Position numbers and translations under genes: made by a program. A stretch of 64,000 nt of DNA. Origin: Clostridia bacterium (GTDB lineage: Bacteria > Bacillota > Clostridia > Oscillospirales > CAG-382). The stretch is from assembly GCA_017516825.1 (NCBI GenBank), contig JAFXBC010000068.1:10950-74949 (forward strand), written 5' to 3'. Positions 32,302-59,417 of this stretch are shown here, piece by piece (within the stretch, counting starts at the first letter, position 1; every line of letters begins with the position of its first letter). A model generated the notes under the pieces. That model was not told the origin of the DNA. It made no database searches and saw only the letters and a list, made by a program, of their open reading frames with translations.

Positions 32302-33384
32302 TCAATCATTGGGAGACCACTTACCCAGCAGGTAGTTTCTCAACTTGAAGTAATCCACCTTTTCGATCTTGCCGTTGCCGTCGATATCACTTCTGGAAAG
32401 CATTCCATCGTCGTAGTCGATCTCCTTGCCCAGCAGATAGGTCTTCAGCTTGAAGTAATCAAGCTTTCCGGCTTTACCGTCGCCGTCAATATCGCCAAAG
32501 ACGTAGGCGGGTTCTTCCTGCTCGAAATAGTAGCAAGCAAACATCCAGGCGTCATCCAGGTTACCGCCGATCCAGCCATCTGCACCGTACCAGCCCTGAA
32601 ACTTGCCAACGCCTTGGAAGATGATCATCAGGTCTTCGGTGAGAGGATAGTACGCAGTTTCATCGGTGCATGCCAGATATTCTCCCAAAGCTTGGTTGTA
32701 ATTGATCTTCTGTACGACGGTATCTCCCTCGTAGATCACGTCCTTCAGCTGACCGTACTCCTTTGCTGCGGCAAGACTCATCTGGAAGTCGGCAAGGCAG
32801 GCGTACAGCAGAGGACCGTTGGCACTACCCAGGTGATAATATCCGTCCGCGCCCTGAACAGCAATATCGCAAGTCTTATCGAAGGTATCCACGTACAGCA
32901 GATCATCCTCATTGCCCTCAAAGGTGAAGGGAACGGGGGTGAACTTGTTTTCGTAAACAGTCCACGGGATCTCAACAATGACGATCTCTTCCTTCTCAAC
33001 AGAGAGATTAACAGTAGCATCGTCGGTGATGACAGCAACCAGGATGGACTGGCCTACGGATCTGCATTCCCATTCGAAGCTGTTTTCCGTTACGGTTTCT
33101 GCAGTAGGCTCGATAGTGACCCACATACCGTTATAGCTGACGAGAGCCACCAAGCCGTTGGAGGCGGTGAAGATAAATTTGCCGATCTCGGTAGGTTCAA
33201 AGTAAAATACGGTGTATATGCAGTCGGGAACCATGTGGTATTCCTTGGTCCCTACGGAAAGACTTTCGTCAGACTGGACGTAGTTTTCCAAAGAGACCGG
33301 ATCCGCAGCCTCGGCGAGGACTGCCATGGGGGTAACGGTGAGGATCACAGCCATAAGCAGGCTAAGAAGTTTCTTCATGGTCAT
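32302..33384 (-). CDS. Secreted protein with an unassigned WxxxCxY domain and a C-terminal type I dockerin
   Basis: Sec signal (AVLA-EA); duplicated GDIDGDGK...DY..LK.YLLG and SDIDGNGK...DY..LR.YLLG dockerin repeats; paralog of 35918-37186. Confidence 0.85.
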   Translation of the reverse strand: MTMKKLLSLLMAVILTVTPMAVLAEAADPVSLENYVQSDESLSVGTKEYHMVPDCIYTVFYFEPTEIGKFIFTASNGLVALVSYNGMWVTIEPTAETVTENSFEWECRSVGQSILVAVITDDATVNLSVEKEEIVIVEIPWTVYENKFTPVPFTFEGNEDDLLYVDTFDKTCDIAVQGADGYYHLGSANGPLLYACLADFQMSLAAAKEYGQLKDVIYEGDTVVQKINYNQALGEYLACTDETAYYPLTEDLMIIFQGVGKFQGWYGADGWIGGNLDDAWMFACYYFEQEEPAYVFGDIDGDGKAGKLDYFKLKTYLLGKEIDYDDGMLSRSDIDGNGKIEKVDYFKLRNYLLGKWSPND

Positions 33385-33414
33385 GTTTGGGGCCTCCTGT
33401 TTTATAATTTAATT

Positions 33415-34593
33415 TTAGGAAAGGTATTCTCCGCTCCAGGTGATCACGGTGGCGGGGTACTTCCCTCGTCTGTTGGGAACGGCACCCACGTTGATGGACA
33501 ATTCATCCCCTGCCTGCACGCTGACGTCAACGTACAGTCTGCCTTGATCGTCCGTGATTTCCGCGTCGGAGGTGACCTGGGCGTAGCTGCGGTTGTTGGT
33601 AACCCTGATAAAGCTGTCAACGGTTGCGGAAAGGTAGAAGCGGATGACACCGTCCTCGGTGGCTGCGTAACGGTAGAAGTAACCCACATCGTTACCGGCT
33701 TCCAGAGAGACTACGTTGTCCTCCGTAATGGATTCCACCACGACGGCGTTGCCCATGGTTCCGAGAGGAAGCGCAAACTTCAAGTCAAAGGACTGCTCTC
33801 CGCTGCCGTTGTTTCCAATTTGGAAGAGAATGGCCTCGCTGGGCATTGCATTTTCCACATGGAAGGTCAAAACGCCATCCACAGGGGTGTAGGTCACGCC
33901 CTCGTAGATTACGTATACGTCCTCGGAAAGAATGGTCAGATCCATTCCGCCCACACGATAGATCCCGAAATACAGGGAAGAGCCGGACTGGATCTTCTTG
34001 GTGGTGACGGGCGTATTTTCATGAGGGATATAGAGATACGGATCCTCCTCCGTACCGGAGCCAAGAGGTTCCTCCTCTACGGGCTCGGAGGATTCCTCCG
34101 GCTCGGAAGGCTCGTCAGGTTCAGAGGGTTCTACGGGTTCTTCGGAGGATTCGTCGGGTTCAGAGGGCTCTACGGGTTCTTCGGAGGATTCGTCGGGCTC
34201 GGAGGGCTCTACGGGTTCCTCAGAGGATTCGTCGGGCTCGGAGGGCTCTACCGGCTCCTCGGAAGATTCATCGGGCTCGGAGGGCTCTACCGGCTCCTCG
34301 GAGGATTCGTCGGAAGGTTCTTCGGAAGGCTCAACAGAAGGCTCTTCGGAAGGTTCCTCGGAGGGTTCTTCGGAAGACTCGGCAGAAGGTTCCCGGGAAG
34401 GCTCGGAAGAAGAATCCGCAGAGGGTTCCTCGGAAGACGTATCTTCGGAGGAGGTTGCGGTGCTTTCCTCTTTGGAGACGGGATCTTCGCTTCCCTTGGG
34501 CGGAAGCTCTTCGGAGCATCCAACCAAGGCAAAGGAAAGAACGAAGGTCAGCAAAAGAGAAGCCGCGAGACAAAATAACAGTTTTTTGTTCAT
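33415..34593 (-). CDS. Lipoprotein with a long Glu/Pro/Ser stalk and C-terminal beta-sandwich domains
   Basis: Lipobox LVGC; ~150-aa E/P/S stalk; GSGTEEDPY motif; Y.ATEDG.I.F PPC-like strand. Confidence 0.85.
   Translation of the reverse strand: MNKKLLFCLAASLLLTFVLSFALVGCSEELPPKGSEDPVSKEESTATSSEDTSSEEPSADSSSEPSREPSAESSEEPSEEPSEEPSVEPSEEPSDESSEEPVEPSEPDESSEEPVEPSEPDESSEEPVEPSEPDESSEEPVEPSEPDESSEEPVEPSEPDEPSEPEESSEPVEEEPLGSGTEEDPYLYIPHENTPVTTKKIQSGSSLYFGIYRVGGMDLTILSEDVYVIYEGVTYTPVDGVLTFHVENAMPSEAILFQIGNNGSGEQSFDLKFALPLGTMGNAVVVESITEDNVVSLEAGNDVGYFYRYAATEDGVIRFYLSATVDSFIRVTNNRSYAQVTSDAEITDDQGRLYVDVSVQAGDELSINVGAVPNRRGKYPATVITWSGEYLS
34112..34312. repeat. 39-bp coding tandem repeat, about 5 copies (SSEEPVEPSEPDE)
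   Basis: Units such as GGAGGATTCGTCGGGCTCGGAGGGCTCTACGGGTTCCTC with synonymous variation. Confidence 0.92.
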
Positions 34594-34595
34594 AA

Positions 34596-35036
34596 TCAGT
34601 TACCCTTGGTCAAGGTCAAGGTATATTCGGTGGCTCCGTACTCAAGATGGATCTCAGCTTCGCCCTCGTAGGTGTAACCCTCGGGGAGAGACAGCACGGA
34701 AAGCTTATAGCCATCGGTGATCTCCGCCTCGAAAACGGCAACGCCGTTCTCATCGCTCATTGCGAACACACAGGATTCCTTGCAGATCTGCACGTAAACG
34801 CCAGAAACAGGGTTGCCGTCCTGATCCACAACGGTAACGGAGAACTTAGCCGCTTCCGGCAGAGAAGCTTCGGTGGAGGCTTCCGCAGAAGTTTCGGAAG
34901 AAGTCTCTGCAACGCTCTCGGCAGAGGATTCTATGGGAGTGGAGGTCTCGGTCTGCTCGGCGCAAGCCGCCAGGCAAAGAAGCATGGTCAAGCCCAGAAC
35001 AAGCGCAAGAAGTCTTTTGGTGAGTTTCATATTCAT
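34596..35036 (-). CDS. Small lipoprotein with a prealbumin/carboxypeptidase-regulatory-like domain and CxxxC
   Basis: Lipobox LAAC; S/E/T linker; FSVTVVDQDGNPVSGV.VQICKESC...SDENG.A.F...LPEGY. Confidence 0.85.
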   Translation of the reverse strand: MNMKLTKRLLALVLGLTMLLCLAACAEQTETSTPIESSAESVAETSSETSAEASTEASLPEAAKFSVTVVDQDGNPVSGVYVQICKESCVFAMSDENGVAVFEAEITDGYKLSVLSLPEGYTYEGEAEIHLEYGATEYTLTLTKGN

Positions 35037-35046
35037 TTTCTCCTTT

Positions 35047-35928
35047 TTAAGGATTCATTTCTTCCATGGTTTGGTACGTTTTCTGCACGTAGTTGTCGGA
35101 AGTGACAAAGTCGAAAAGCTTTGCGAAGGGTTCGGGGGTGGTAATTGCTCCCACGTGCACCAAGCAGATCATACCGTAGCGGTCAACAACCACCGTGGTG
35201 GGATAAGCACGGAGATTCATGGCCGTCTGCCAGAAGGGGTCTGCAGAAGCTACCGGGAAGGTCAGCGCCAACTGCTCCGCATAGGCGGAGACGGTGGTGT
35301 CGGTGCCGTCGTAGGGATTGATGGCGATGACCTCCAGACGATCCTTATATTCCCCGTAGGCCTGTTCCAGATAAGGAAACTCCATACGGCAAGGGCCGCA
35401 ACCGATGAACCAGAAATTCAGCACAACGGCCTTCTTTTCCGTGAGAAGGTCAGCGATGGAAAGCTGTGTGCCGTCGGTACAGGTGATGTGGAAATCGGGA
35501 ATAATATCTCCCAATCGAAGGGAAAGGTCGGATGTGTCCGTGACAAAATAGGGAGCGGTCTTTACCTTCACCACGGTGTCTTTTTCGGTGATGGGGTAAT
35601 ACTTATCCGTAACATAGCCCTGCTTTTCCAGGTAGATCACGGCAACGTAGGGATTGGATCCTTCCGCGGTAAAGGAAAGCTTCCCTTCCCTGTCGGTCAT
35701 GGCGGCATATACAAGGTCGGTGAGGGATGAATCCTCAAAAACCTTGACCATAACGCCGTCTATGGCCATACCGCCTTCCGTTTGGAAGGTGAGGGTGTAA
35801 TCCATGGGAACGCTTTCCGCCGAAGGGGCTTGGCTTTCCTCTGCGTGACCTTGACAGCCTGCCAAAGACAGGACCAGGCAGATCAATGCAACCTGCAGGG
35901 AGAGCAATCGTTTGCCATTATTCCACAT
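35047..35928 (-). CDS. TlpA/ResA-like thiol-disulfide oxidoreductase lipoprotein (CGPC)
   Basis: Lipobox LAGC; prealbumin-like domain; PDF...DG, VVLNFWFIGCGPCRMEFP and AYPTT.VVD cis-Pro loop. Confidence 0.9.
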   Translation of the reverse strand: MWNNGKRLLSLQVALICLVLSLAGCQGHAEESQAPSAESVPMDYTLTFQTEGGMAIDGVMVKVFEDSSLTDLVYAAMTDREGKLSFTAEGSNPYVAVIYLEKQGYVTDKYYPITEKDTVVKVKTAPYFVTDTSDLSLRLGDIIPDFHITCTDGTQLSIADLLTEKKAVVLNFWFIGCGPCRMEFPYLEQAYGEYKDRLEVIAINPYDGTDTTVSAYAEQLALTFPVASADPFWQTAMNLRAYPTTVVVDRYGMICLVHVGAITTPEPFAKLFDFVTSDNYVQKTYQTMEEMNP

Positions 35929-37186: not shown

Positions 37187-37192
37187 CCGTTA

Positions 37193-39982
37193 TCAATCGT
37201 TGGCGCCCAGATAATCGTAATAGTAGCAGAGCTTCAGCCAAGAATTCTCTACACCGGCGAAGGTGTATTTATCCATGAGAAGCTGAAGCATCTCAGCAAG
37301 CCGTTGATCTACTGCCACGCATCCGTTACGCTCGGTATTTTCGGAATCATCGATCTTATCCAGATAGGTACGCATTTCCTCGGTGAGGTCGCCGCCCTTG
37401 CCGTGATATCTGCCGGCAAAGACGTCCTCCAACTGGTAGTTGATTGCGTTTTGATCGTACTCATCTCCCCATTTTTCTCTGAGATAAGCATCGGTCTTTT
37501 CGATATCGTTATCGTTTTGCTTCAGGTAGGAAAGAATCTCGGCATCGGTCTCGGATTTGCTGAAATCGAAGCCGCCCATCTCGATCATCTCGGTGATAGA
37601 GTGACTGAATACGCTGGTCATAGAGGTGAAATCCGCATAGATCAGACTTCCGTCAGCGGAATCATACCAATAACCGTCTTTCAATTCCGGCTTGATACCG
37701 CCGGTAATGATATCGTACATGGTGTCGCCGGTGGCATCACCGTCGTAGGTGAAGTACCCGGGAGCGGCGGCACGGAAGAGCCACAGCTCTTCTGCGATAT
37801 ACTCAACGTCATAGTAAATAACGCCGGTAGCGTAAACGTCCCAGAAAGCCATATTGATATAGTAAGGCTTGCCCGCTTCCATATAGTAGACCATGGAAAC
37901 GTTAACGGTATCGGTATACATACGTTCGTCGTGCTCGTAGGTATAAATGATATCGCCGTTGCTGTCAAAGATCCAGGAGTCGATGCCGTCTTTGTATTCG
38001 CTTCTGGAGGTAAAACGGTATACCCCGGATCTTTCGGGAATGAATTCCGCAAACATACCTCTGGGGATGATCGCTCTGTCGTAGTAGAAATAGTTGGTCT
38101 CAACGTTCTTACCCAGGGTTGCGTCCAGTGCGCTTTCGGGGCAAAGACCGATGATGGGATCCTGAAGCTGAGTAGCGGTGGGACCGTACGCCACGAAGTA
38201 CTTACAGATCTTCAGCCATTCGTTCTCGGTGCCGTCAAAGCCGGCCACCTCGGCAACCTGCTTGAGCATTTCAGCAAGCTCTTTGTTTACGGTACAGATG
38301 CCGTTCAAGGAAGCGTTGGAAGCATAGGAGAAGTATTTCACCATGTTCTTCCCTTCCTTGTCGTAGAGGCTGACGTCGTCCTTATCTGCCAGACCCTCGT
38401 AGACGATCTGGTAAACGGACATTTCCTCGGAGAAGGAAGTGTAGCCCATAAGGTCTGCCAACAGCAGGGGGCCGTCTGCCTTGCCTACGTGGTAGTAGCC
38501 GTCCTTTTCGTTATAGACGATATCCACGTAAGAATAGGTCTCGCCGTCCTCGGTGGAGCCTGCGGGACGGGGCAGATAGGTATCCACGTCGATTTCGGAA
38601 GCATCCACGGCGCGGAAATTATTGATGTAAACGGTGTCGTCACCCTCGGAGGTATCGCTATCCTTGACAAAGCAAAGAGCGATCTCGTAGGTGCCGTCTT
38701 CCTCTGCAACGCAGGGGTAGCAGGACTGCCAGGTCTCGGTCTCCCCTACGCCGGAGATCTGGAACACGTCCTCGTCGTTGACGATGACGTACAGGATATC
38801 GCAAAGGCGCTCGGAGGAGATGAGGTAGTCGAAGCCAACCGCCTGTCCTTTTTTCATGGTGACGTCGGCGTAGAGAATGGCGTAGGAGGAATCGACGCCG
38901 GTGTTGGAGGCGTAAAGTGCCTTCTTGCCGTTCTTTTCCGTAGCGATGAAGGGCCAGATATACTGAGCGTTTTCATCCTCGGTCTCGGGACGGTAGGTAA
39001 CATCGATATCGCCCTTGTTGATGAGAGCAGAAATGTTCTCGGAGGAATCCATGGTGTAGTTGGGAAGCACCTGGGTAGCCAGATCGCCGATGCCGCCTGT
39101 GCAGACCTTCTGCTTATAAACGTCCGCAAGGAAATGGTCGAAGGCGGACAGGAAGGGACGCTTGCTGGTGATAGCACCTGCCTCCACAACGCTGATCATA
39201 CCGTAACGGTCGATGAACACGGAGGTAGGATAAGCCTTAATGCCAAATACGTTTGCCCAAGAAGTGGGACACTTTGCCATGGGGAAATCAAGCTCGTATT
39301 CCGCCTTGAAGTTCTTCACAGCCGTTTCGTTGTCCTCCGGATAGGGGTTCAAAGCGATGATCTCGATCTGATCCTTATACTCTCCGTAAAGGGTGTTCAT
39401 CAGCGGGAACTCCGTTACACACCAGCTGCAGGTGGTATACCAGAAGTTCAAGATCACCAGTTTTTTGGTCTCTAAAACCTTGGAAAGAGTAAGCTCTTCT
39501 CCGTCGGAGGTAGTGACGGTGAAATCGTACATGATATCCCCGATCCCAAGGGTAGCGGCGGACAGATCCTCATCGTTCACCAAAGAGGAGGTGAGGACGA
39601 TACTTGCGGAGGTGCCGGAGAAGCCGTAGTAGCTGTCAACGGAGTAGCCCTTTGCAACCCCCGTGAGAACGATGGCGTAGTCCTTGCTCTGGGGCAAGGT
39701 AAAGGATACGTCACCGTTTGCGTCGGTCTTGGCAAAGTCCACCATATCGGCAAGGGAACCGTCTGCGTAGATATACACGTCGGTTTCGGACATTGCCATG
39801 CCGCCGGCTGTCTCGATATGGACGGTATAGGTAGCGGAGCCGCCTGCAGGCGCGCTCTCCTCGGAGCTTGTGTCGCTGGTGGTTCCGCTGTCACCCGAGC
39901 AGGATGCCAACAGAGGGAGACAGATCGCCAAAAGCAGAAGCAATGCGATCATCCCGTGCTTTCTGTAGATTCTTCTTTTCAT
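37193..39982 (-). CDS. Large multidomain lipoprotein: prealbumin-like domain, TlpA redoxin (CSWC), two WxxxCxY domains
   Basis: Lipobox LASC; VILNFWYTTCSWCVTEFP; AYPTSVFID; two internal repeats ending ENEWLKICKY and ENSWLKLCYY. ATG 39982 with AAGGA RBS. Confidence 0.88.
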   Translation of the reverse strand: MKRRIYRKHGMIALLLLLAICLPLLASCSGDSGTTSDTSSEESAPAGGSATYTVHIETAGGMAMSETDVYIYADGSLADMVDFAKTDANGDVSFTLPQSKDYAIVLTGVAKGYSVDSYYGFSGTSASIVLTSSLVNDEDLSAATLGIGDIMYDFTVTTSDGEELTLSKVLETKKLVILNFWYTTCSWCVTEFPLMNTLYGEYKDQIEIIALNPYPEDNETAVKNFKAEYELDFPMAKCPTSWANVFGIKAYPTSVFIDRYGMISVVEAGAITSKRPFLSAFDHFLADVYKQKVCTGGIGDLATQVLPNYTMDSSENISALINKGDIDVTYRPETEDENAQYIWPFIATEKNGKKALYASNTGVDSSYAILYADVTMKKGQAVGFDYLISSERLCDILYVIVNDEDVFQISGVGETETWQSCYPCVAEEDGTYEIALCFVKDSDTSEGDDTVYINNFRAVDASEIDVDTYLPRPAGSTEDGETYSYVDIVYNEKDGYYHVGKADGPLLLADLMGYTSFSEEMSVYQIVYEGLADKDDVSLYDKEGKNMVKYFSYASNASLNGICTVNKELAEMLKQVAEVAGFDGTENEWLKICKYFVAYGPTATQLQDPIIGLCPESALDATLGKNVETNYFYYDRAIIPRGMFAEFIPERSGVYRFTSRSEYKDGIDSWIFDSNGDIIYTYEHDERMYTDTVNVSMVYYMEAGKPYYINMAFWDVYATGVIYYDVEYIAEELWLFRAAAPGYFTYDGDATGDTMYDIITGGIKPELKDGYWYDSADGSLIYADFTSMTSVFSHSITEMIEMGGFDFSKSETDAEILSYLKQNDNDIEKTDAYLREKWGDEYDQNAINYQLEDVFAGRYHGKGGDLTEEMRTYLDKIDDSENTERNGCVAVDQRLAEMLQLLMDKYTFAGVENSWLKLCYYYDYLGAND

Positions 39983-40058
39983 TCTTAGGTTATTCCTTTC
40001 GTAGCCCGCTGGGGCGGGCGGTCTATATGGATTTTGTGTGCGAAGCCGCAAAATCCGA

Positions 40059-40083
40059 TTTGAAAAAGGATCCCTTTTTCAAA
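40059..40083. promoter_or_regulatory. Perfect 11-bp inverted repeat in the only sizeable gap inside the operon
   Basis: TTTGAAAAAGG-ATC-CCTTTTTCAAA; function (operator, weak terminator or processing site) unknown. Confidence 0.45.
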
Positions 40084-40111
40084 CTTTCCTCCCGGATGAA
40101 TGAGTGAATGG

Positions 40112-40357
40112 TTAAACGAGCCAAAAGATCAAGGCCACGATGAGAAAGGCAACCGCAAGGAAGCCCACGGCAACAAGGGTGGGCAGAAGCATCATACGTA
40201 CCGCACTCCAATAGGTGCGCCAGATGTCGCCGACAGAGGACGTGGTACCGCTCCCCCAGCGGCTTTTCCCCGCAGATACGCCTGACATATCCGCGATGGT
40301 CCTGCCGTCGTCGATATAATGCACTTTTTCCTTTTTGGGCTTGTCTTTCTTCATCAT
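40112..40357 (-). CDS. Small single-TM hypothetical protein (DDGRTIADM motif)
   Basis: 13 nt after oppF with AAGGA RBS; basic N-terminus and C-terminal hydrophobic helix. Confidence 0.75.
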   Translation of the reverse strand: MMKKDKPKKEKVHYIDDGRTIADMSGVSAGKSRWGSGTTSSVGDIWRTYWSAVRMMLLPTLVAVGFLAVAFLIVALIFWLV

Positions 40358-40370: not shown

Positions 40371-41372
40371 TTACTCGTTCAGCAAATGGCAGGCGGCACA
40401 GTGGCCGTTGCCGTAATCTTTGTATTCCGGCGTTACCTCTTTGCAAATCTCCTTTGCGTGGGGGCAACGGGTGTGGAAGCGGCAACCCTTGGGCGGGTTG
40501 GCGGGAGACGGGATATCACCGCTTAGGATGATGCGGTTCATTTTGACGTCGGGATCGGGATAAGGAATGGCGGAGAACAGGGCCTGGGTGTAGGGGTGCA
40601 AGGGGTTTGCGAAGATATCCTCCTTGGTGCCGAACTCCACCATGGAGCCAAGGTACATCACGCCGATCTTATCGGAAATGAACTTGACCACGGAAAGGTC
40701 GTGGGAAATGAACACGTAGGTGAGATCCATCTCCTGCTGGAGACGCTTCAAAAGATTGATGATCTGGGCCTGGATGGAAACGTCCAGGGCGGAAACCGGC
40801 TCGTCACAGATGACAAGCTTGGGGTTGACGGAAAGGGCGCGTGCGATACAGATACGCTGGCGCTGTCCGCCGGAGAATTCGTGGGGGTAGCGCTCGTAAT
40901 AGTAGGAACGCAGACCGCACTTATCCATGAGATCCAGAACGTACTCCTTCACCTGATCCTTGGGAACGATGTTATGTACCTCCACAGGCTCGGAAAGGAT
41001 GCCGCCCACGGTGCTTCTGGGAGGCAAGGAGGAGTAGGGGTCCTGGAAGATGATCTGCATCTTCTTGCGGATCTCCCGCATTTGGGAAGAGGTGTAATCG
41101 GTGATGTCCTGCCCTTCGAAGAAGATACGCCCGGAGGTGGGCTGGTGGAGCTTGAGAATGGCTCTGCCCAGGGTGGTCTTACCGCAGCCGGATTCGCCGA
41201 CGATGCCCAGTGTCTCCCCTGCTTTCAGGGAGAAGGACACGTCGTCAACGGCGATAAGCTCGCGGGTGACCTTGCCGGTGATGGTCTTCTTGAGGGGGAA
41301 GCACTTCCGCAAATTGTGAACCTCCAAAAGGTTGTCACTTGCGGGGGTAACGTTCTTCTGTTCTTCAGCCAT
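40371..41372 (-). CDS. oppF: Oligopeptide ABC transporter ATPase OppF
   Basis: GESGCGKTT, FQDPYSSL, FSGGQRQR, DEPVSALD, HPYT and the C-terminal Cys cluster. Confidence 0.93.
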   Translation of the reverse strand: MAEEQKNVTPASDNLLEVHNLRKCFPLKKTITGKVTRELIAVDDVSFSLKAGETLGIVGESGCGKTTLGRAILKLHQPTSGRIFFEGQDITDYTSSQMREIRKKMQIIFQDPYSSLPPRSTVGGILSEPVEVHNIVPKDQVKEYVLDLMDKCGLRSYYYERYPHEFSGGQRQRICIARALSVNPKLVICDEPVSALDVSIQAQIINLLKRLQQEMDLTYVFISHDLSVVKFISDKIGVMYLGSMVEFGTKEDIFANPLHPYTQALFSAIPYPDPDVKMNRIILSGDIPSPANPPKGCRFHTRCPHAKEICKEVTPEYKDYGNGHCAACHLLNE

Positions 41373-42513: not shown

Positions 42514-42516
42514 AGC

Positions 42517-43560: not shown

Positions 43561-43572
43561 AAAGATACCTCC

Positions 43573-48537: not shown

Positions 48538-51500
48538 TTACTGTGCGGGAGCGGGTTTGATGGGGTCTTCCTTCTTCAGAACGCCCTGCAAGCAATAGAT
48601 CGTCAGCACGAAGACGGCGACCAGAGAGAAGAGGAGTGCCACTTCCCCGGGGTTACCCTTGGGTACGTTCACGCCGTTCTCGCCGGGATCCTCCACGGGA
48701 GGTGTGAGGGCGGCGATACGCTGTTCGGCAGAGACCAGAACGTTGTAATTGGTTACCAACGCCTGCTGTTCCAGGGTTGCGATCTTGTCGTAGGCGGCAC
48801 GGGCGGCTTCCACGATGGCCTTATCCTCGTAGGTTACCTTTTCGGGGATGGCATTGATGGCGTTGATGGCCGCGATGGTGACGTCGTCCGGAGCGGCGGG
48901 GCCCTGGATTCGATAGCCGAAATACTGGTCGCAGATGAAGGAATCGTAGCCGACGCCGTTGACGGGGCTGACCATGATCACCTTATTGTCCACATAGCCC
49001 ACGTAATCCACGAAGTTCGCGCCGTAGAAGACGTTGGAATACTGGCCGCCGGTGGCGTTCCACATGAAGTAAGGGATCAGACCCATACCAACGATGGTCA
49101 CCTCGGTGCCGTCGTAGTCGGTATAGTCACCGTATTCTCCTGCACCGGGAACGTGCTCCAGGGATTCGTAATAAGTGGGATCGAATTCCTCCTCCATGAT
49201 GGGAGCGGTATAGCTGCCGAAGACCACCAGAGCCAGCTCATCGCAGGCGTAGAAGGCTTTATGGCCGATGGCAGTGGTCATGTAAGGCATCTTGATGCGC
49301 TGTACGTTACTGCCTGCGAAGGCGTAGGCGGCGATACGCACGGTATCATCTGCAACGATCACGTCCTCGGGGGTATAGCCGGCGTAGGTCACCAGCTCCA
49401 TACCAAGGAGATTCTTGTAGTAGAGAGAGCCGTCGATGACGGAAACGGTATCGCTGATATCATAGGTGTAGGTGGGTACTTCGTATTCCTTACCGCCGAA
49501 GGTTTCGGTGGTGGTGGATACGAAGGGCGTGAGGGTACACATAGCGAAAGGGTTATCGCCCAGGGTGGTGAGGGCGTTGCCCAGAGTCACCTTGAAGGGA
49601 GTCACCTCCTCCTTGATGAAGGCGTAGGAGCCCAGGGATACCACGCCGGAGAGGTCTGCCTCGGTGAGAGCGATATAAGCAAAGGCATACTCACCGATCT
49701 CTGTCACGGCGGAAAGATTCTTCACCTCGTCCAGCGGGTCGCAGTAGGCGAAGGCACCCTCGCCAACGGTGGAGCCGTTGGGATTCAGGGTGAGAGATTC
49801 CATGAGACGGTTGGAAACGAAGGCGTACTTATCGACCTTGGAAACGGAGGACAGATCCACGGATTCCAGGCCGCATTCCATAAAGGCGTACTCGCCGATG
49901 GTCTCAACGGACTTCAGGTTAATCTTCTTAAGAGCGTCACAGCCTGCGAAAGCGTAGGCGGGGATCTCCTTGATACCGTTGCCCAACTTGATCTCCACCA
50001 TGTCGCGGCAATATGCAAAGGCGTATTCGCCGATGCTTTCAGCAGAGGAGAGATCCAGGGAGGTGACTTTAGGTCCGTAGTAGGAATAGATGTAGTATCC
50101 GTCCTTGCCCACGGCAGCAACGGTCATATTGGTATCCATGCAGGCGTAGTAAACGTCGCCGGACAGAGCATAGTCGCCGATGGACTTCGCCTTAGAAAGG
50201 TCAATGGACTTAAGAGAACACATATTGTAGAAGGCCATGTTACCGATCACCGCGTTTTTACCCAGGGTGATCTTCTCCAGGCTTGCGGCGTAGGAGAAGG
50301 CGTTGTTGCCGATGACTACGTCGTCGCCGATGGTGAGAGAAGTCAGAGCGGAGGAGAACTTATAACGGAAGTACTTATCCTCACCCACGTAGAAGCCTTC
50401 CACCTCAAAGGCGTTGTCCTTATTCAGGCTGAAGGCGTAGTCTCCAAGAATCACGTTATCGCCGATAACAACGGTAGCCAGATCCAGACATTCGCTGAAG
50501 ATCCCTTCCCCTACCGTCATTCCGTTGGGAATGGTAACGGACTGCAGAGAGGTATGAGAGAAGGCGTAGTCGCCCATGAAGGCGTCGCTTACAAAGTCGG
50601 GAAGGTTGGTAAGGTGGGTCTCGAAGAAGGCGTACGCACCGATGGAGGTGAGCTTACCCAGCTTTACCAAAACCAGGTTGGTAGAGGAAGCGAAACCGTA
50701 ATCCTCGATAACGGTGACCTTTTCCATCACGGCGGAGGTGATCTTCTTGTTATGAGACAAGGCACCCTTGCCGACGGTGGTCACGGAAGCGTTGACGTAT
50801 TCCCCGGAAACGTTGGGGGACAGGGCTACGAGGGTCTTTCCGTCGGTGGACAAAATGTGGTCGGCGGTCTGTGCGCGGTAAGCGCGGTTGCCGTTTTCCA
50901 CCACGAAGGAGCTGATCTTGGTCTCCCGGAAGGCGAAGGCACCGATGTCGTTCACCTCGGGACCGATGGTAACGGTCTCCATGGCTTTACACTGGTAGAA
51001 CATACCCTCGGGCAGGACGGCGGAGTTGATGCGGAATTCCTTCAAGGTCTCGCAACCGGTGAAGGCGTAGGCGCCGTATTTCACCTTATCTGCCTTGATA
51101 TCGGCGTTTGCAAGCTTCTTACAGCCGGCGAAGGCGTACTGGCCTACGGACTGGAGAGTATCCGCCAGGACGATGCCGGACAGGTTCCGGTTACCCGCAA
51201 AGGCGTAGTCGGAGATCACGCAGATGGCGTCCAGCGCAAGAGTTCCGCGAAGGTCGCAGTTCTCGAAGGCGTTCTGGTTGATGATCTTCAGGTTGTTTTC
51301 ACCGCTGAAGGTGATCTTCTTGAGAGAGGTGCAGTTGTAGAACGCGCCGTAGTCGATGGCCTCCAGGGAGGAGGGGAACACGATCTCCTCCAGGGCGGTC
51401 AGATTTGCGAAGGCGTAGGAATTGATCTTTTCCACACCCTCGGGGATGACCACCTTGGTGATGGTGTTGTCACCGATGAACCAGGCCTTGGAATTTTCGG

Positions 51501-54500
51501 CGTCGTCGAAGGCAAGCTCCTCCTCCGTCTTCATAATATATTCGAAGTTGGAGAAGGCGAACTGGCCGATCTCGGTAAGAGCAAGCTTTGCGGGAATATC
51601 CACCAAGCCGCCGTTGCCGTAATAGTGGGTCAGGCTGGAGCCTGTTTTAATGTAGGGATCCTTGACCTCCACGGAAACGGTTTCGGAGTAGTAGGTGCTC
51701 TTCCCTTCCTGCATAACCTTGATGGTCACGGAGGCAAAGCCCTCGGCTACCGCGGTCACCACGCCGCTTTGGTCGATCTTAACGATCTTTTCGTTGCTGG
51801 ATTCAAATTCCACGGTGGTGTCACCGGGATAATAAGCATCCAGAGAATACTGCAACAGAACGGACTCGGAGGGATACATAGCCAGATTGAAGTTGCCCTC
51901 AAAGAAGCGGACGTTGCCGGTATCGCCGATGTCCTTATCCTCGTTCACCACAACGTAATAGGCCTTCAAAGTCTGATAGCCGTCCAGAGTGAATACGTCC
52001 ACAACGGGCTTGTCGTATCTCCGGTAGCCCTCGTCGCCTTCCTTCAGAACGGTGACCTTAAAGGTGACGCTTTCGTTGGTGTTGGGGTCCTGGGCCTTGA
52101 TGATGGCGTTACCGGAGGATACGGCCACCAGCTTATTGTTCACCACGCGGACCACGCTGGGCTTGGAGGAGGAGTAGTGAAGCAGCTCCCCCCACTGGGT
52201 ATAGGGATACACGATGGGCTCCAGGGTGTACACTTCGTTGGGGCTGAGGGTGAGACCATCCTCCAGGCTTTCGAAATAGAACTCGGTAAAGTCGTCGGGG
52301 AGGGGGATCTCGAAGGTTGCGGTGTTCAGCGCATAGTCGTACACGCTGACCACGAAGCAGTTCTTATTGGTTGCGTTATGCTTGATATCAAAGAGGTAAT
52401 CCGTCAGCTCAAAGGTCACGCGGGTGGTGCTGTTCTTCTTGGAGTATACGGGAGTCATATACTGCTCGAAGGCCTTCATCTCGGGAGTGGGATTGCCGTT
52501 TTCGTCCTGGCCGGTGGTGACGTAGCCCAGCTGTGCGCTCATGGCGTAGTGGTTGTCGTAGATCAGCACGTCGGCGTAGAGACGGTTCTTCTTCAAGGTC
52601 TTGTCGTACTCGTAGTAATACTCTACGTCGGTAACGGTGGGAGCCTGGAAGTCGATGGTCAGGGGGAATTCGAAAACGTTGTTCTTGTTGGTATCCAGAG
52701 CGCCGTCGGCGTAATCCAGATAACCGGTGAGAGTGACGATGAACTGAGAGTTATTTGCAAAGTTATAATTTGCGGTGTCGAACTCGATCTCGATGTTAGA
52801 GGGGTATATGGAAGGTCCGCCGTCGCTGTAAGACTTACGCACCATGTCGTCAACGCAAGTAAATACCACTTCTCCGGTGGTGGCGTTGGAGATGGCCACT
52901 TCGATACGCTCGGCATTACGGAGCAAACCTGCCCAGACGAAGCGCAAGGAGTGAATGGTGCCATCCTTATTGGAAAGAGCGATGTACTGCTCGTTGGCGG
53001 CGATGACCATGTCCTTGGGATCCTGCAGGAAGTAGTAGGAGCCCAGGTAGCTGACGTAGTCCTCACTGACGCCACCGATGGGACGGGTGGCGTAGGCGTC
53101 TGCCATGGTCTTGTCTTCGAAGTCGATACCGTCGTCCAGCTCGTCGGCGTTGGTATCGTAATAGGTCAGGTCGAAGAGAGGTGCAACGGTCCAGTCGCCG
53201 TAGAAGGCCAGGTAAGGAACGTTCAGGTCATATTCGGTGCCCTCAGTGGCAGTGAGGGTGATATAGCCCTCCACGTACATACCGTTGGCGAAGGATTCGT
53301 TCAGATACTTCTTGTCTGCATCAGACAGGGTGACGGTGACGGTGACATCCAGGCTATCGCCGCCGTAAACGGTGACGGTGTTGCCCTGAAGGTGGCCGCC
53401 GCTGCTATCCTTGGAGGTAACGGTAACGGTGGCACCGTCCAGAATGTAAGACTCCTCGGTAACGGTGGTCTTACCTGCGCCGGTCTTGGTGTCACTGACT
53501 CCCTCGGTCATTACGTAGGCGCCGAGGTCGTAGGAAACGGTTGCATCACCGAAGTTGTTGATGGTGAAGGTCATCTCGTAGACACCGGTCTTGGAGGGGT
53601 CGTCTCCAAGCTCCAGCTTGGCCTTGTCCATCAGATTGCCGTTCTTATCCAGGGTGGTGATATAGGCGGGGGTGTTCAAGGCGTTGGAAAGGCTACCCAA
53701 GCCCGCCCCCTGCTTGCGAACGGAGTAAGGAAGGCCGTTTTTGCCAAGGGCGATGTCCGCGGTGGACATCAAAAGCCCGTTGACCATGGCGTTGACCTTA
53801 TTGTTATCGTTTGCGATCTCGGGGAAATTCTCCACCACGTACTGACGGAGCAGGACGACCACACCCGCCAGGTTGGGGCAGGCCATGGAGGTACCGGACA
53901 AACGGTCGTACCCGCCGCCGGTTACGGAAGACAGGATGCTGCCGCCGTGTGCGGTGATCTCGGGCTTGATGCGAAGATCGGGAGTGGGACCCCAGGAGGA
54001 GAAGTCGGAGATAAAGGGACCGGAGGTCTGGGAACGACTGATCAACAGCTTGCCGCTACCCACGGCCGCCAGCATTTCGCCGTCGTCCTGGGAAATGGAG
54101 CAAACCGCAAGGGTGGTCTCGCCCACGTTCATTTTGATGTCGCCGGATACATTATTATATATAATGATGCCTGCCGCGCCCTGTTCCTGGGCGATGATGG
54201 CTTTTTCCTCGAAGGTGTTGGAGCCGCGGCGTACCAGGGCGATCTTGCCCTTCACGTCCATGCCGGTGTAGTCGGCGGTTCTGCCCACGCCGGGGATGAG
54301 GACGAATTCCAGCTCGGCGGAATCCTTGTCCCCCAAGAGGGTATCAAAGAAGTTGTTCTCCTTACTGGAGGAGTTGACGGATTCGGAGAAGTAGACGATG
54401 GTCTCGCCGTACTTGATGTAAGGAGTCTCCACACCGCTGATGGAGGCAACGGAGAGCACGCCCTCGTAGGTGGAGGGAGAGCCTACCGTACCGGTATCGG

Positions 54501-55725
54501 GGTTGGAGGTGAGGCCCAGGTTACCGTTTGCCTCGGAGCCCTGGGAGGAGCTGTAGCTGTTGGAGGCGGCGACCACCATGCTGATGCCCGCCTTGCGGAT
54601 CTTTTCGTAGATGCCGTTGACTGCCTCCTCGTCGGTCTCGCGGGAGAAGCCGCAGGCGGTACCGATGGACATATTAATCACGTCTACGCCCAAAACCACG
54701 CAATCCTCAAGAGCTGCCATGACCCAAGCGGTTCTGGTGGTATCCATCACGTCGGAGAAGATCTTCATGGAAACCAGCTGTGCGTTGGGAGCAACGCCGC
54801 GGATGGTATCGTCGTTACCCACGATCACGCCGGAAACGTGAGTACCGTGGTTGTTGTGGGTGGAATATACGTCGGAATCGTTGTCGGCGTAGTCGAAGCC
54901 GAAGGGAACCTTTTCGTTGATATATACGTCGTCTACGGTGATACCCTTCAGAAGGTCGTAAGCGATGGTCTTCTCCACCAGAGAAGCCACGTCGTCGTAA
55001 GTCAAGCCCAGATGAGTAGAGGTAAAGTTATCGGGAGAGAAGGCGGTGTGCTTGGAGTCCAGACCTGTGTCCAGAACGGCAACCACCATACCGCTGCCGT
55101 CGTAGCCCGCATCGGAGCTGTCAAAAATACCCGTCTCGAAAACGTCTACTTCGTTTTCCACCAGCTGGGTCTCCGCGGCGTTATACACCTCGCCGACGAT
55201 GACACCTCTGCCTTCCCCCAAGGCACTGCAGGTGGTAGCAAAATCCCCGGCCTTGATCAAAAGCTCAAAGCCGCTGACCACGGTGGAGTATTCCTCGCCC
55301 AAACGGTAGGAAACGCCCTTCTTATCCAGATTGGAAAGAACGTCGGACTTTTCCGCGGCGATGGATGCTCTGATCCCCCTGGCATCCTCGCTTCCCGTGA
55401 TGTATTCGGCAAAGCTCATGGTTTTACCGGAACGCTCGTAAGCGTCCATCATGCTGATGGTATCCACCGTGACGATCACGGAGATCTCCTCGCTGTCCTT
55501 GATCCCGGAGGGCAAGGGGAACATGACGGAATTGTTCAGATACTTCTGATAATCCAACGTCAGTCCTTCCAGCTCTCTGATAGAATAGGGATTCTCCGTC
55601 TTAGCGGAGGTAAGGATCCGGGTCAGGCTCAAAACAGGGGCGACCAAAGTACCCGCCAACAATACGGGAACCATCAAAGCCGCCAGGCTGTTTTTCCAGT
55701 TTTTCACAAAGTTTCTTCTTTTCAT
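48538..55725 (-). CDS. Cell-envelope S8 (subtilisin/lactocepin-like) serine protease with PA, Fn3-like and Big_2 domains, a BspA-type LRR array and a C-terminal TM
   Basis: Triad motifs VAVLDTG, HGTHVSG and SGTSMACP; FSSWGP...KPEITA; PA domain DVKGKIALVRRG; two Big_2-like SS...V.V...V.A..G.A.I; many IG.YAF..C repeats; TM near the end. ATG 55725 with GAGG RBS (~2395 aa). Confidence 0.93.
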   Translation of the reverse strand: MKRRNFVKNWKNSLAALMVPVLLAGTLVAPVLSLTRILTSAKTENPYSIRELEGLTLDYQKYLNNSVMFPLPSGIKDSEEISVIVTVDTISMMDAYERSGKTMSFAEYITGSEDARGIRASIAAEKSDVLSNLDKKGVSYRLGEEYSTVVSGFELLIKAGDFATTCSALGEGRGVIVGEVYNAAETQLVENEVDVFETGIFDSSDAGYDGSGMVVAVLDTGLDSKHTAFSPDNFTSTHLGLTYDDVASLVEKTIAYDLLKGITVDDVYINEKVPFGFDYADNDSDVYSTHNNHGTHVSGVIVGNDDTIRGVAPNAQLVSMKIFSDVMDTTRTAWVMAALEDCVVLGVDVINMSIGTACGFSRETDEEAVNGIYEKIRKAGISMVVAASNSYSSSQGSEANGNLGLTSNPDTGTVGSPSTYEGVLSVASISGVETPYIKYGETIVYFSESVNSSSKENNFFDTLLGDKDSAELEFVLIPGVGRTADYTGMDVKGKIALVRRGSNTFEEKAIIAQEQGAAGIIIYNNVSGDIKMNVGETTLAVCSISQDDGEMLAAVGSGKLLISRSQTSGPFISDFSSWGPTPDLRIKPEITAHGGSILSSVTGGGYDRLSGTSMACPNLAGVVVLLRQYVVENFPEIANDNNKVNAMVNGLLMSTADIALGKNGLPYSVRKQGAGLGSLSNALNTPAYITTLDKNGNLMDKAKLELGDDPSKTGVYEMTFTINNFGDATVSYDLGAYVMTEGVSDTKTGAGKTTVTEESYILDGATVTVTSKDSSGGHLQGNTVTVYGGDSLDVTVTVTLSDADKKYLNESFANGMYVEGYITLTATEGTEYDLNVPYLAFYGDWTVAPLFDLTYYDTNADELDDGIDFEDKTMADAYATRPIGGVSEDYVSYLGSYYFLQDPKDMVIAANEQYIALSNKDGTIHSLRFVWAGLLRNAERIEVAISNATTGEVVFTCVDDMVRKSYSDGGPSIYPSNIEIEFDTANYNFANNSQFIVTLTGYLDYADGALDTNKNNVFEFPLTIDFQAPTVTDVEYYYEYDKTLKKNRLYADVLIYDNHYAMSAQLGYVTTGQDENGNPTPEMKAFEQYMTPVYSKKNSTTRVTFELTDYLFDIKHNATNKNCFVVSVYDYALNTATFEIPLPDDFTEFYFESLEDGLTLSPNEVYTLEPIVYPYTQWGELLHYSSSKPSVVRVVNNKLVAVSSGNAIIKAQDPNTNESVTFKVTVLKEGDEGYRRYDKPVVDVFTLDGYQTLKAYYVVVNEDKDIGDTGNVRFFEGNFNLAMYPSESVLLQYSLDAYYPGDTTVEFESSNEKIVKIDQSGVVTAVAEGFASVTIKVMQEGKSTYYSETVSVEVKDPYIKTGSSLTHYYGNGGLVDIPAKLALTEIGQFAFSNFEYIMKTEEELAFDDAENSKAWFIGDNTITKVVIPEGVEKINSYAFANLTALEEIVFPSSLEAIDYGAFYNCTSLKKITFSGENNLKIINQNAFENCDLRGTLALDAICVISDYAFAGNRNLSGIVLADTLQSVGQYAFAGCKKLANADIKADKVKYGAYAFTGCETLKEFRINSAVLPEGMFYQCKAMETVTIGPEVNDIGAFAFRETKISSFVVENGNRAYRAQTADHILSTDGKTLVALSPNVSGEYVNASVTTVGKGALSHNKKITSAVMEKVTVIEDYGFASSTNLVLVKLGKLTSIGAYAFFETHLTNLPDFVSDAFMGDYAFSHTSLQSVTIPNGMTVGEGIFSECLDLATVVIGDNVILGDYAFSLNKDNAFEVEGFYVGEDKYFRYKFSSALTSLTIGDDVVIGNNAFSYAASLEKITLGKNAVIGNMAFYNMCSLKSIDLSKAKSIGDYALSGDVYYACMDTNMTVAAVGKDGYYIYSYYGPKVTSLDLSSAESIGEYAFAYCRDMVEIKLGNGIKEIPAYAFAGCDALKKINLKSVETIGEYAFMECGLESVDLSSVSKVDKYAFVSNRLMESLTLNPNGSTVGEGAFAYCDPLDEVKNLSAVTEIGEYAFAYIALTEADLSGVVSLGSYAFIKEEVTPFKVTLGNALTTLGDNPFAMCTLTPFVSTTTETFGGKEYEVPTYTYDISDTVSVIDGSLYYKNLLGMELVTYAGYTPEDVIVADDTVRIAAYAFAGSNVQRIKMPYMTTAIGHKAFYACDELALVVFGSYTAPIMEEEFDPTYYESLEHVPGAGEYGDYTDYDGTEVTIVGMGLIPYFMWNATGGQYSNVFYGANFVDYVGYVDNKVIMVSPVNGVGYDSFICDQYFGYRIQGPAAPDDVTIAAINAINAIPEKVTYEDKAIVEAARAAYDKIATLEQQALVTNYNVLVSAEQRIAALTPPVEDPGENGVNVPKGNPGEVALLFSLVAVFVLTIYCLQGVLKKEDPIKPAPAQ

Positions 55726-56670: not shown

Positions 56671-56683
56671 AAAGGAGGCGGCA

Positions 56684-58171: not shown

Positions 58172-58193
58172 AGGGTTACGGGATTAAAGGGTT

Positions 58194-59417
58194 ATGAGAC
58201 ACAAAAGAGACGGCGCGGCATCCTTGATCCTGCTGTGCTGGTTGGTTTACGCTTGCTCTTATTTGGGGAAGCTGAATTATGCGGCCAATATCACCCCCAT
58301 CATGGCACATTACGGTGTGAACCATGCCCAGGCGGGATTGGTGAGCAGTTATTTTTCCGTGACCTACGCCATCGGACAGGTGGTGAATGGGATCTTCTGC
58401 AAACGGTATCCTCTGAAGCAGGTAGTTTTCGGTGCTTTGGTGGTTTCCGCAACCGTCAATTTGGCCGTGGCGTTTGCCCCCGCTTTCTGGATGATCCGTT
58501 TTCTGTGGATGGTGAACGGGTTTGCCACTTCCCTGCTATGGCCCTGCCTTGTAAGACTACTTTCCGAGACCTTGGACAAGAAGGATCTGGGGAAAGCGGT
58601 GATTGCCATGGGGACCACAACGGCGTCAGGCACCTTTGCCATTTACGGCATCAGCGCGGGATTTGCGTTGTTTGACGGTTTTAAGTGGGTGTTCGTTCTC
58701 GCGGCGGCGGTGGTTCTGTCGGTTGCGGTATATTGGTTATGGGTTGCAGATAAGAAGATCGGCGGCGTTGTCAGAACGGAAGAAGCGGAAACTCCCCTTT
58801 TGAAAAAGCAAGAGCGGGTCTCACCGGGGAAAGCGCTTTTCATCTGCGTCGGGATGTTGGCCCTTTACGGCGTGTTCACCAATCTGGTAAAGGATGGACT
58901 TTCCGGGTGGGTACCTTCCATTTTGAAGGAAGAATACGGACTGGGAGATTCCCTTTCCATTCTTCTGACCCTGACATTGCCTATGGTATCCATGTTCGGT
59001 AGTGCCCTCTCTGTGCGGGCCCAGAAGCGGATCCCGGATTTCGTATTGCTTTGCGGAGTACTGTTCGGACTTTCCGGGGCGGTGCTGTTCGGGGTGACCG
59101 CAGGACTGCAGGCGGGCGCATTGGTGCCTATCTTCGCCGGATTTGCGATGGTGTGTCTGTTCATGGCCACCTGCAACAGCGTGATCACAAGTATGTTCCC
59201 TATGTTCATGAAGGGGAAGCTGAACTCCGGAATGCTTGCCGGAGTGCTTAACGGTTTTTGCTACGTGGGCAGTACCCTCAGCTCTTATGGATTGGGTGCT
59301 TTGGCAGATCATTTCGGTTGGCAATCGGTGTTTTCGGTGCTGACTGCAGTCTGTCTGGGGTGTCTCGTCCTTGCCGCGGGGTATTGGGGCGGAAAACGCA
59401 TTCTGAAAAGAGCATAA
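58194..59417 (+). CDS. MFS transporter (OPA/GlpT-like)
   Basis: About 12 hydrophobic helices; Y.GKLNY, G.VSS.F...YAIGQ..NG and G.LAD.FGW. Confidence 0.88.
   Translation: MRHKRDGAASLILLCWLVYACSYLGKLNYAANITPIMAHYGVNHAQAGLVSSYFSVTYAIGQVVNGIFCKRYPLKQVVFGALVVSATVNLAVAFAPAFWMIRFLWMVNGFATSLLWPCLVRLLSETLDKKDLGKAVIAMGTTTASGTFAIYGISAGFALFDGFKWVFVLAAAVVLSVAVYWLWVADKKIGGVVRTEEAETPLLKKQERVSPGKALFICVGMLALYGVFTNLVKDGLSGWVPSILKEEYGLGDSLSILLTLTLPMVSMFGSALSVRAQKRIPDFVLLCGVLFGLSGAVLFGVTAGLQAGALVPIFAGFAMVCLFMATCNSVITSMFPMFMKGKLNSGMLAGVLNGFCYVGSTLSSYGLGALADHFGWQSVFSVLTAVCLGCLVLAAGYWGGKRILKRA

Follow-up and report, generated by a model that had tools for sequence, protein, structure and literature searches.

A conserved locus of gut Clostridia joining a cell-envelope protease and an Opp-type importer to surface TlpA-like lipoproteins and a NapH-like/TlpA fusion: a candidate system for redox-assisted protein utilisation

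The genome of a Clostridia bacterium (GCA_017516825.1, 91% complete) carries on contig JAFXBC010000068.1 a locus in which the genes for a cell-envelope protease, an Opp-type importer and several surface lipoproteins with thioredoxin-like domains lie head-to-head with those for two membrane proteins, one with a CXXC motif and one with Fe-S motifs. The whole stretch of DNA analysed here, 64,000 nt of this contig, is referred to below as the window. The locus is a real, conserved and hitherto undescribed combination of known protein families, to which two unannotated ones are central, and we divide it into three modules. Module A is predicted to combine an Opp-type ABC importer with a subtilase of the cell envelope and a lipoprotein. 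Module B would form a membrane redox complex, in which a CD1871A-type CXXC protein is paired with a NapH-like Fe-S protein bearing an outward TlpA domain, and module C comprises putative surface lipoproteins; in two of these a ResA/TlpA-type CxxC domain is combined with Ig-like and beta-sandwich domains of binding type.

Fourteen co-oriented genes occupy the minus strand from 55725 to 32302 (Table 1). Their intergenic spacing ranges from -11 nt (overlap) to 39 nt with the exception of one 129-nt gap, and the set is closed by one intrinsic terminator; the open reading frame listing, the reading of the sequence and a terminator scan thus agree with the preliminary description of this DNA on all of these points. 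Pfam, NCBIfam and the translations also uphold the gene content given there (S8-LRR protease, OppABCDF, a small transmembrane protein, two TlpA lipoproteins and four further secreted proteins). Among the exported proteins, translations and Pfam show a lipobox in seven and a type-I signal peptide with a Dockerin_1 domain in one. The 129-nt gap (40111..39983) separates the 81-aa gene, which ends at 40112, from the 929-aa gene, whose ATG at 39982 is preceded by a GAAAGGA ribosome-binding site. Inside the gap, at 40050-40111 on the minus strand, lies the palindrome TTGAAAAAGGGATCCTTTTTCAA with a T-poor tail, which the terminator scan did not report and which may act in attenuation or mark a site of processing between the importer genes and the accessory genes. 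The remaining terminator-like matches in the scan were at the level of shuffled sequence (16 found, 17.0 expected), as were the promoter-like ones. Across a divergent intergenic region of 177 bp (27% GC against about 54% for the window), or of 198 bp if translation starts, as is likely, at the invariant Met8 at 55924, the two genes of module B are read in the opposite direction. Matches to NF040920 and Fer4_5 confirm the claim that a CxECIGxG membrane protein and a 4Fe-4S/TlpA fusion are encoded beyond this AT-rich gap.

Table 1 Features of the locus, with coordinates in the window
Feature	Coordinates	Strand	Domains and remarks
Intrinsic terminator closing the 14-gene set	32267..32295	-	13-bp stem and T run, directly past the last stop codon
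360-aa secreted paralogue of the 419-aa protein	32302..33384	-	C-terminal Dockerin_1, 31.7 bits
392-aa lipoprotein	33415..34593	-	Long Pro/Ser/Glu linker; C-terminal domain of about 215 aa, of no known family
146-aa lipoprotein	34596..35036	-	Single Ig-like domain, weak Ig-like Pfam matches
293-aa lipoprotein	35047..35928	-	Ig-like domain and ResA/TlpA-like domain (CGPC)
Lipoprotein of about 419 aa	35918..37186	-	Ig-like domain, pre-peptidase-C-terminal/collagen-binding-like beta-sandwich, C-terminal Cys-pair domain
929-aa lipoprotein	37193..39982	-	Ig-like domain, ResA/TlpA-like domain (CSWC), beta-sandwich, two copies of Cys-pair domain
81-aa protein	40112..40357	-	Basic N-terminus, single C-terminal membrane helix
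OppF	40371-41372	-	ABC_tran, oligo_HPY
OppD	41365-42513	-	ABC_tran, oligo_HPY
OppC	42517-43560	-	Permease; OppBC have BPD_transp_1 x2 and OppC_N
OppB	43573-44565	-	BPD_transp_1 (OppBCDF span 40371..44565)
860-aa SBP_bac_5 lipoprotein (SBP)	44580..47162	-	Pfam and NCBIfam
435-aa lipoprotein without curated family	47202..48509	-	Lipobox ITGC
2395-aa cell-envelope S8 protease	48538..55725	-	Signal peptide, S8 with PA insert, fn3_5, Big_2, seven LRR_5 stretches, C-terminal membrane anchor
Multi-pass membrane protein, 255 aa	55903..56670	+	Last 38 residues are a CD1871A-family CXXC domain, ...NICTECIGLG
NapH-like/TlpA fusion, 495 aa	56684..58171	+	NapH-like polyferredoxin, further membrane helix, Ser-rich linker, TlpA-like domain (WCTPC)
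MFS transporter (MFS_1)	58194..59417	+	Pfam; adjoins module B, not a conserved member of the unit

The catalytic Asp, His and Ser motifs of the protease (VLDTG, HGTHVSG and GTSMACP) can be read in its translation, which matches PF00082 at 150 bits. Its S8 domain (residues 230-695) encloses a PA domain (504-572) and is followed by fn3_5 (733-859), and with this intact triad and a PA insert preceding Fn3-like domains the protein belongs with the S8A cell-envelope proteinases; C5a peptidase, SpyCEP and cell-envelope proteinase A are its closest solved relatives (E 3e-66 to 5e-57). Neither an LPXTG sorting signal nor an S-layer-type anchor was found in the protease, the C-terminus of which is a hydrophobic helix followed by KKEDPIKPAPAQ. 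The 435-aa lipoprotein encoded next had been called GLUG-like. Look-alike clusters in the ESM Atlas do carry Flg_new and Glug, whereas the protein itself has no Pfam match at E<=0.01, and we keep a Flg_new/GLUG-like nature as a lead only. The importer has the full composition of the Opp/Dpp type, with an SBP_bac_5 protein, two BPD_transp_1 permeases (one with OppC_N) and two oligo_HPY ATPases. Its substrate-binding protein is atypical: Pfam covers the N-terminal edge and residues 475-754 only and leaves a long middle part unmatched, the nearest solved sequence is the oligopeptide-binding AppA of B. subtilis (1xoc, E 1.5e-11), and the score against the curated oligopeptide-binder equivalog NF045467 (Opp4A) is 90.8 bits, below the cut-off of 650. 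The 81-aa gene directly follows oppF wherever the gene order of the window occurs.

In module B the smaller protein matches NF040920 (CD1871A_fam) with 40.6 bits (cut-off 32) and is encoded just before the 4Fe-4S membrane protein; the family is otherwise known for short proteins. Across 16 such CD1871A-like proteins invariance is confined to the C-terminal ...K-A-x-x-I-C-T-x-C-x-G-L-G, a few glycines and the start. In the fusion protein Pfam and NCBIfam recognise two stretches of Fer4_5 (PF12801), a 4Fe-4S dicluster domain and a Redoxin/Thioredoxin domain, and the scores stay below the cut-offs of the NapH models (TIGR02163, 84.3 against 213 bits; PRK09477, 60.8 against 234 bits). Fourteen fusion proteins share, without variation, every Cys of one 4-Cys motif, three CX3CP motifs (99/103, 159/163 and 213/217), two ferredoxin motifs with eight Cys between them and the WCTPC motif. 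When the NapH-like part (residues 1-340) was modelled together with the CD1871A-like protein, the complex scored 0.61, a mark reached by 58 of 80 solved complexes and 2 of 110 mismatched pairs (a rough calibration only, since custom alignments were used), and the best of three controls scored 0.00. The runs agreed in at least 96% of contacts with a partner pLDDT of at least 74, and in the modelled interface the CXXC end of the CD1871A-like protein (residues 247-255) meets NapH-like residues 45-64 and 159-163. The models support the notion that the two membrane proteins bind each other. Because a single helix lies between them and Fe-S domains are as a general rule cytoplasmic, the ferredoxin domain is probably inside the cell and the TlpA domain outside.

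The 929-aa lipoprotein of module C has AhpC-TSA/Redoxin/ResA-type domains in Pfam and NCBIfam, and so has the 293-aa one. The model of the former (pLDDT 86.7) was matched by Foldseek to ResA and to the Bacillus thiol-disulfide oxidoreductase 4nmu at TM of about 0.8, with Etrx2 also among the matches. In an alignment of 33 diverse sequences of its family the active-site Cys pair, the next Glu and Pro and the cis-Pro are invariant, and each of the two C-terminal domains has a conserved Cys pair; the family counted 692 cluster representatives at E<=1e-30 in an exhaustive HMMER search and bears no annotation. The AlphaFold model of the 419-aa protein (pLDDT 85) has three parts, of which the beta-sandwich resembles domains of clostridial collagenases (5sv5, 1nqd and 5iku by Foldseek) and the C-terminal alpha/beta Cys-pair domain gave no Foldseek match and no usable ESM Atlas match. 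Its relatives have no better name than 'hypothetical protein'. The 419-aa and 360-aa proteins are paralogous (29% identity over about 280 residues, E 1e-22), part of the region that they share recurs in the 929-aa protein (E 3e-8), and conserved Cys pairs are found in the repeated C-terminal domain of all three. A search of the genome of this organism (91% complete) brought up no cohesin (PF00963) as a partner for the dockerin of the 360-aa protein, and attachment of the cellulosome type is not supported. In many 360-aa orthologues the dockerin part is left uncovered (query coverage 64-80%).

The TlpA-like domains of modules B and C have the attributes of the ResA/TlpA group, namely a thioredoxin fold, a CxxC motif (CSWC, CGPC and WCTPC) and a cis-Pro, invariant in the alignments, and lipoboxes or a preceding membrane helix place them outside the membrane. 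Their scores of 83.6, 84.1 and 50.3 bits are below the cut-off of 170 set for the ResA subfamily model PRK03147.

The whole block, from the fusion gene to the gene for the dockerin-type protein, is found in the same order in all seven fully covered congeners, the contig of an eighth being too short. Identities range from about 30% (CD1871A-like protein) to 92% (OppB), and the flanks differ in all congeners except the closest relative. Module C was detected in 9 of 25 genomes of the genus and in none of 16 from other families of the order. The full-length fusion is present in 10 of the 25, and in the tenth of these (G007) a piece of the 929-aa gene stands where a contig ends. The remaining 15 genomes, seven of them at least 95% complete, yielded neither. 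Among 399 sampled Clostridia genomes six, belonging to four families, gave long matches to the 929-aa protein, and the five strongest matches to the 435-aa lipoprotein (E<=7e-16) together with a weak one (7e-9) fall in exactly these six; nine further genomes showed only partial matches to it (5e-11 to 8e-9), inside larger proteins. In G182, a member of another family, all components lie within 28 kb with the accessory operon on the opposite side of the fusion gene, and in G410, with a protease of only 30% identity, a stretch of 29 kb holds the genes for the protease, lipoprotein, SBP, OppBCDF, fusion and 929-aa-type protein, again in a different order.

A pattern scan of 185,579 species genomes yielded 326 relatives of the 929-aa protein, and the best 80 loci were examined within 10 kb on either side. 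All 80 are from metagenome-assembled genomes whose titles name animal, mostly ruminant, gut sources; the taxa in the titles are Oscillospiraceae, Acutalibacteraceae, Faecousia and Candidatus Fimenecus, a few of these labels being evidently loose. The fusion, protease, Opp or 435-aa lipoprotein genes are within reach in 46 of the 80 loci, and in 26 of the 35 that have at least 9 kb on both sides. The order of the window occurs in 13 loci, module C followed by a reversed module B in 26 (18 of them with the protease beyond), module C directly before the protease in six, and an inverted Opp in one. No link was seen within 10 kb in the other 34, which are mostly on short contigs; when five such genomes were searched whole, a full-length fusion was found elsewhere in four. 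Within module C the 146-aa gene adjoins the 929-aa gene in 70 of the 80 loci and the 392-aa gene is present in 64. Enlarged accessory operons, with up to six 392-aa paralogues and two or three 419-aa paralogues, were noted in L132, L161, L141, L155 and others, and some genomes have two separate loci of the 929-aa type (L136 and L144 belong to one genome). Because the clustering survives repeated rearrangement and the modules co-occur even when unlinked, there is good evidence that modules A, B and C make up one functional system.

Proteins of the ResA/TlpA type need an electron donor, and the CcdA/DsbD membrane domain (PF02683) was found neither in the 91%-complete genome of this organism nor in any of the six sampled genomes that bear the system, against 179 of the 399 overall; the need for a donor other than CcdA is supported by this result. 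About half of the sampled Clostridia are without CcdA. NapH-like genes, usually for proteins of about 300 aa, are present in 72 of the 399 genomes at E<=1e-30. The partners were scored in the best 29 loci only (L029-L057), of which 23 have a TlpA-like gene either fused or no more than 1.5 kb away and 12 a detected CD1871A-like C-terminus. CcdA occurs in 18 of the 72 genomes with a NapH-like gene and in 161 of the 327 others (54 have the NapH-like gene only and 166 neither), which corresponds to an odds ratio of 0.34 with a Fisher p of 2e-4, a significance overstated since kin are not independent. The trio of NapH-like, TlpA and CD1871A-type proteins is a widespread clostridial module, partly complementary to CcdA; it is a candidate source of extracytoplasmic reducing power and possibly a general clostridial substitute for CcdA.

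The gene content, the conserved active sites, the clustering and co-occurrence of the modules and the absence of CcdA are what the analysis shows; the direction of electron flow, the substrate and the synergy with proteolysis are inferred. By way of its Fe-S clusters and Cys motifs, module B would accept cytoplasmic electrons and pass them to its own TlpA domain, which in turn would recharge the surface TlpA lipoproteins of module C. The binding-type domains of module C may hold extracellular proteins while the CxxC sites reduce those disulfides that confer protease resistance; the protease would cut the opened proteins and the Opp importer would take up the resulting peptides. In this way gut Clostridia devoid of CcdA/DsbD could feed on disulfide-stabilised dietary or host proteins. 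Keratin, seed inhibitors and storage proteins become more susceptible to proteases once their disulfides are reduced, and the fusion of TlpA domains to Ig-like and PPC/CBM-like modules, as known from enzymes acting on external polymers, argues by analogy for the same reading. Judged from sequence, that surface disulfide reduction aids proteolysis and peptide import through one three-module system is the explanation we tentatively favour, as a serious possibility somewhat short of probable. We hold as doubtful the wider proposal that the NapH-like and CD1871A-type pair is a new transmembrane electron conduit replacing CcdA/DsbD in many Clostridia, which here would power substrate-binding surface protein-disulfide reductases (about 700 sequence clusters) on behalf of the protease and Opp, the whole being a redox-assisted protein utilisation locus of herbivore-gut Firmicutes.

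Several observations weigh against surface reduction in the service of proteolysis. Linkage of the redoxin and Fe-S/TlpA genes to the protease/Opp genes in relatives had been set as a test in the preliminary description: the synteny in seven of seven congeners, the clustering after rearrangement and the co-occurrence speak for it, but in G432, G259 and G441 module C is on a different contig from module A, so that linkage is not obligate. In these genomes modules A and B are found elsewhere, with homologues of the SBP and the 435-aa lipoprotein on other contigs in G432 and G259, and with the fusion, the protease-side lipoprotein and the SBP together on another contig in G441; the 929-aa-type operon of G432 adjoins split NapH-like, TlpA and CD1871A-like genes. 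No fusion, SBP or 435-aa lipoprotein was found in a whole-genome search of G442, which has module C and for which completeness is not given, and no NapH-like gene was found in the 190 contigs of G094. The counts of co-occurrence overstate the support, kin being non-independent. Module B is not specific to the system, as the 23 NapH-like/TlpA loci are mostly without modules A or C. The accessory proteins, with their conserved Cys pairs, may themselves be what the redoxins act on, the lumen of the gut is a reducing environment already, so that enzymatic reduction is less needed, and the match of the SBP to oligopeptide binders is remote, peptides being its putative cargo. As a separate observation on G432, a 1503-aa GLUG-motif protein (L064:1527-6038) is encoded divergently to the CD1871A-like gene, in the place held by the S8 protease in the window.

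Modules B and C might fold or quality-control the system's own exported proteins and leave external substrates unreduced, the TlpA domains reducing or isomerising wrong disulfides, or keeping free Cys reduced, in the LRR region of the protease and in the Cys-pair domains of the lipoproteins. ResA, StoA and CcmG act on the cell's own exported proteins, and both the Cys pairs of the C-terminal domain repeated in the 929-, 419- and 360-aa proteins and the LRR_5 region, with about one Cys per repeat, could provide clients. However, the protease, which had been described as Cys-rich, contains no more than 24 Cys in 2395 aa (1.0%), and this count weakens the alternative of a mere maturation role as it had been worded. 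To devote three separate TlpA domains to housekeeping, and to fuse two of these to binding-type modules, would be a considerable expense; module C is away from the protease in G432 and G259, and in the family containing G410 it is without most of the accessory paralogues but retains the TlpA lipoprotein. A role confined to the upkeep of the system is in our judgement unlikely. The arrangement of module B as an apparent outward electron path fed by Fe-S clusters would also suit a function in which the protease merely supplies peptides, with cystine, mixed disulfides and disulfide-linked peptides reduced and then imported by Opp as a source of cysteine, or with external disulfides accepting electrons from a ferredoxin-oxidising membrane complex. 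Binders of the Opp family include importers of thiol peptides, such as the glutathione binder GsiB, and a NifS-like gene convergent to the fusion gene in four of six congeners points weakly the same way. Yet large binding-type domains fit macromolecular substrates better than small ones, nothing in the locus conserves energy, and an Rfam scan of the whole window brought up no family reaching its gathering score, hence no riboswitch, sulfur-responsive or other; sulfur scavenging or electron disposal appears distinctly unlikely.

The unusual length of the SBP (860 aa) with its long unmatched part, its low Opp4A score and the distant relation to AppA leave room for a cargo other than protein-derived peptides, be it cell-wall or signalling peptides or a non-peptide ligand, in which case the protease and lipoproteins, with LRR_5 and dockerin modules of adhesion type, would serve in adhesion or in processing another surface polymer. 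The importer does, however, have OppC_N and oligo_HPY, by which the oligopeptide subfamily is recognised, and the protease is a member of the cell-envelope proteinase clade with its triad intact; we consider this reading very improbable. That independent operons without functional coupling were merely brought together on a mobile island is the explanation to which we give hardly any credence. It would account for the patchy occurrence of the block in the genus (10 of 25 genomes) and for the identities between the window and G182, a member of another family, which are 76-86% for OppB/C/D/F, 78% for the SBP and 64% for the protease as against 54% for topoisomerase I (TopA). These figures, with TopA as the one housekeeping gene compared, hint at lateral transfer of the locus as an island. 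The disfavoured lack of coupling is hard to reconcile with a gene order reshuffled in at least four ways in which the modules are still together, and with modules that co-occur even when unlinked.

The favoured reading, reduction of disulfides at the cell surface ahead of proteolysis and import, invites comparison with several described systems. The scheme of cell-envelope proteinase (CEP), transport and peptidases of lactic acid bacteria is outlined in PMC3587842. The likeness to PrtP/CEP, Opp and intracellular peptidases lies in an S8 protease of the CEP clade with PA and fn3_5 domains and in a five-component Opp-type importer. Unlike in lactic acid bacteria, protease and Opp share in the window one operon with redox lipoproteins, the protease ends in a membrane helix in place of a sorting signal and has seven LRR_5 stretches, and the SBP is 860 aa long. 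We know of no redox partner of the lactic acid bacterial proteolytic system. With the CcdA/DsbD-dependent pathways (ResA, StoA, CcmG/TlpA and pneumococcal Etrx) the locus shares anchored extracytoplasmic CxxC proteins of thioredoxin fold, but no CcdA/DsbD was found in the genome, where the NapH-like Fe-S/TlpA fusion is the candidate donor, and the TlpA domains have Ig-like and beta-sandwich modules attached to them. NapH, MauN and CcoG resemble the fusion in their Fer4_5 repeats with CX3CP and a two-cluster ferredoxin domain; the fusion differs by an additional C-terminal helix and TlpA domain and by its pairing with a CD1871A-family CXXC protein, and, in contrast to NapH, no nitrate-reductase genes were seen in the window.

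DipZ of M. tuberculosis likewise fuses an electron-transporting membrane part to an outward TlpA-like domain, and Foldseek pairs its C-terminal thioredoxin and CBM-like part with the 929-aa protein in an alignment of about 345 columns (E 6e-11). The membrane domain of DipZ is, however, of the CcdA/DsbD type, and the overall TM is low (0.37) because the orientation of the domains differs. Treatment with thioredoxin aids the digestion of seed and milk proteins. Thioredoxin-aided digestion and keratinolysis share with the locus the proposed logic of reducing cross-links before a subtilase acts, and keratinase reviews state a synergy of reductase and protease. Neither process is known to have its genes gathered in a single conserved locus that also supplies an importer and a membrane electron path of its own, and in the literature searched neither was found in strict gut anaerobes. 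That literature, which did not extend to most subscription journals and supplements, also contained no account of the CD1871A family, of fusions of NapH with TlpA or of a comparable locus. The articles on surface or extracellular thioredoxin, proteolysis and gut bacteria provided background only, and the term 'protein utilization locus' did not occur in a separate set of listed papers. How strict gut anaerobes reach disulfide-locked proteins such as seed inhibitors, storage proteins, mucin end domains and immunoglobulins is poorly understood; should the favoured reading be true, the locus would give a concrete mechanism and marker genes for protein degradation in herbivore guts.

Pieces of the genes of the locus are present in assembled contigs of RNA libraries from gut metatranscriptomes, in which carry-over of DNA is possible. 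Near-identical contigs cover 273 nt (three differences) and 306 nt (four differences) of the 929-aa gene and 232 nt of the SBP gene without any difference. Assembled contigs of this kind carry no information on strand, ends, level or co-transcription. The share of the locus in the five RNA runs found was small (0.05-0.17), and four of them were mapped; the high contig depth over oppD and oppF is due to cross-mapping of conserved ABC genes. A CodY box was considered for the divergent promoter region and rejected, as the single site has three mismatches, 103 of 2000 shuffled sequences match as well, and six of eight relatives have none.

The MFS transporter gene had been counted with the divergent set. 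It is adjacent to module B in the window, is shared only with the closest relative (G012) and was met in none of the 80 further loci, hence we rejected it as a member of the unit. No gene of the same direction is conserved downstream of the fusion gene across six congeners. Four of them (G003, G005, G018 and G023) have there a convergent gene for 372-406 aa (start MIYFDNAAT...), which we take to be cysteine-desulfurase-like (NifS-like) and which is not at that position in the window. Further exported or membrane proteins are encoded near the locus at 24961-27135, 59490-62422 and 62419-63528. They include a DUF4855, F5/8 type C and Big_9 protein, a 706-aa multi-pass membrane protein without a Pfam match, which adjoins an ABC ATPase-like open reading frame, and a DUF5050-like lipoprotein. 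The left half of the window otherwise contains housekeeping genes, among them those for SMC, TopA, DprA, RelA/SpoT and RecJ.

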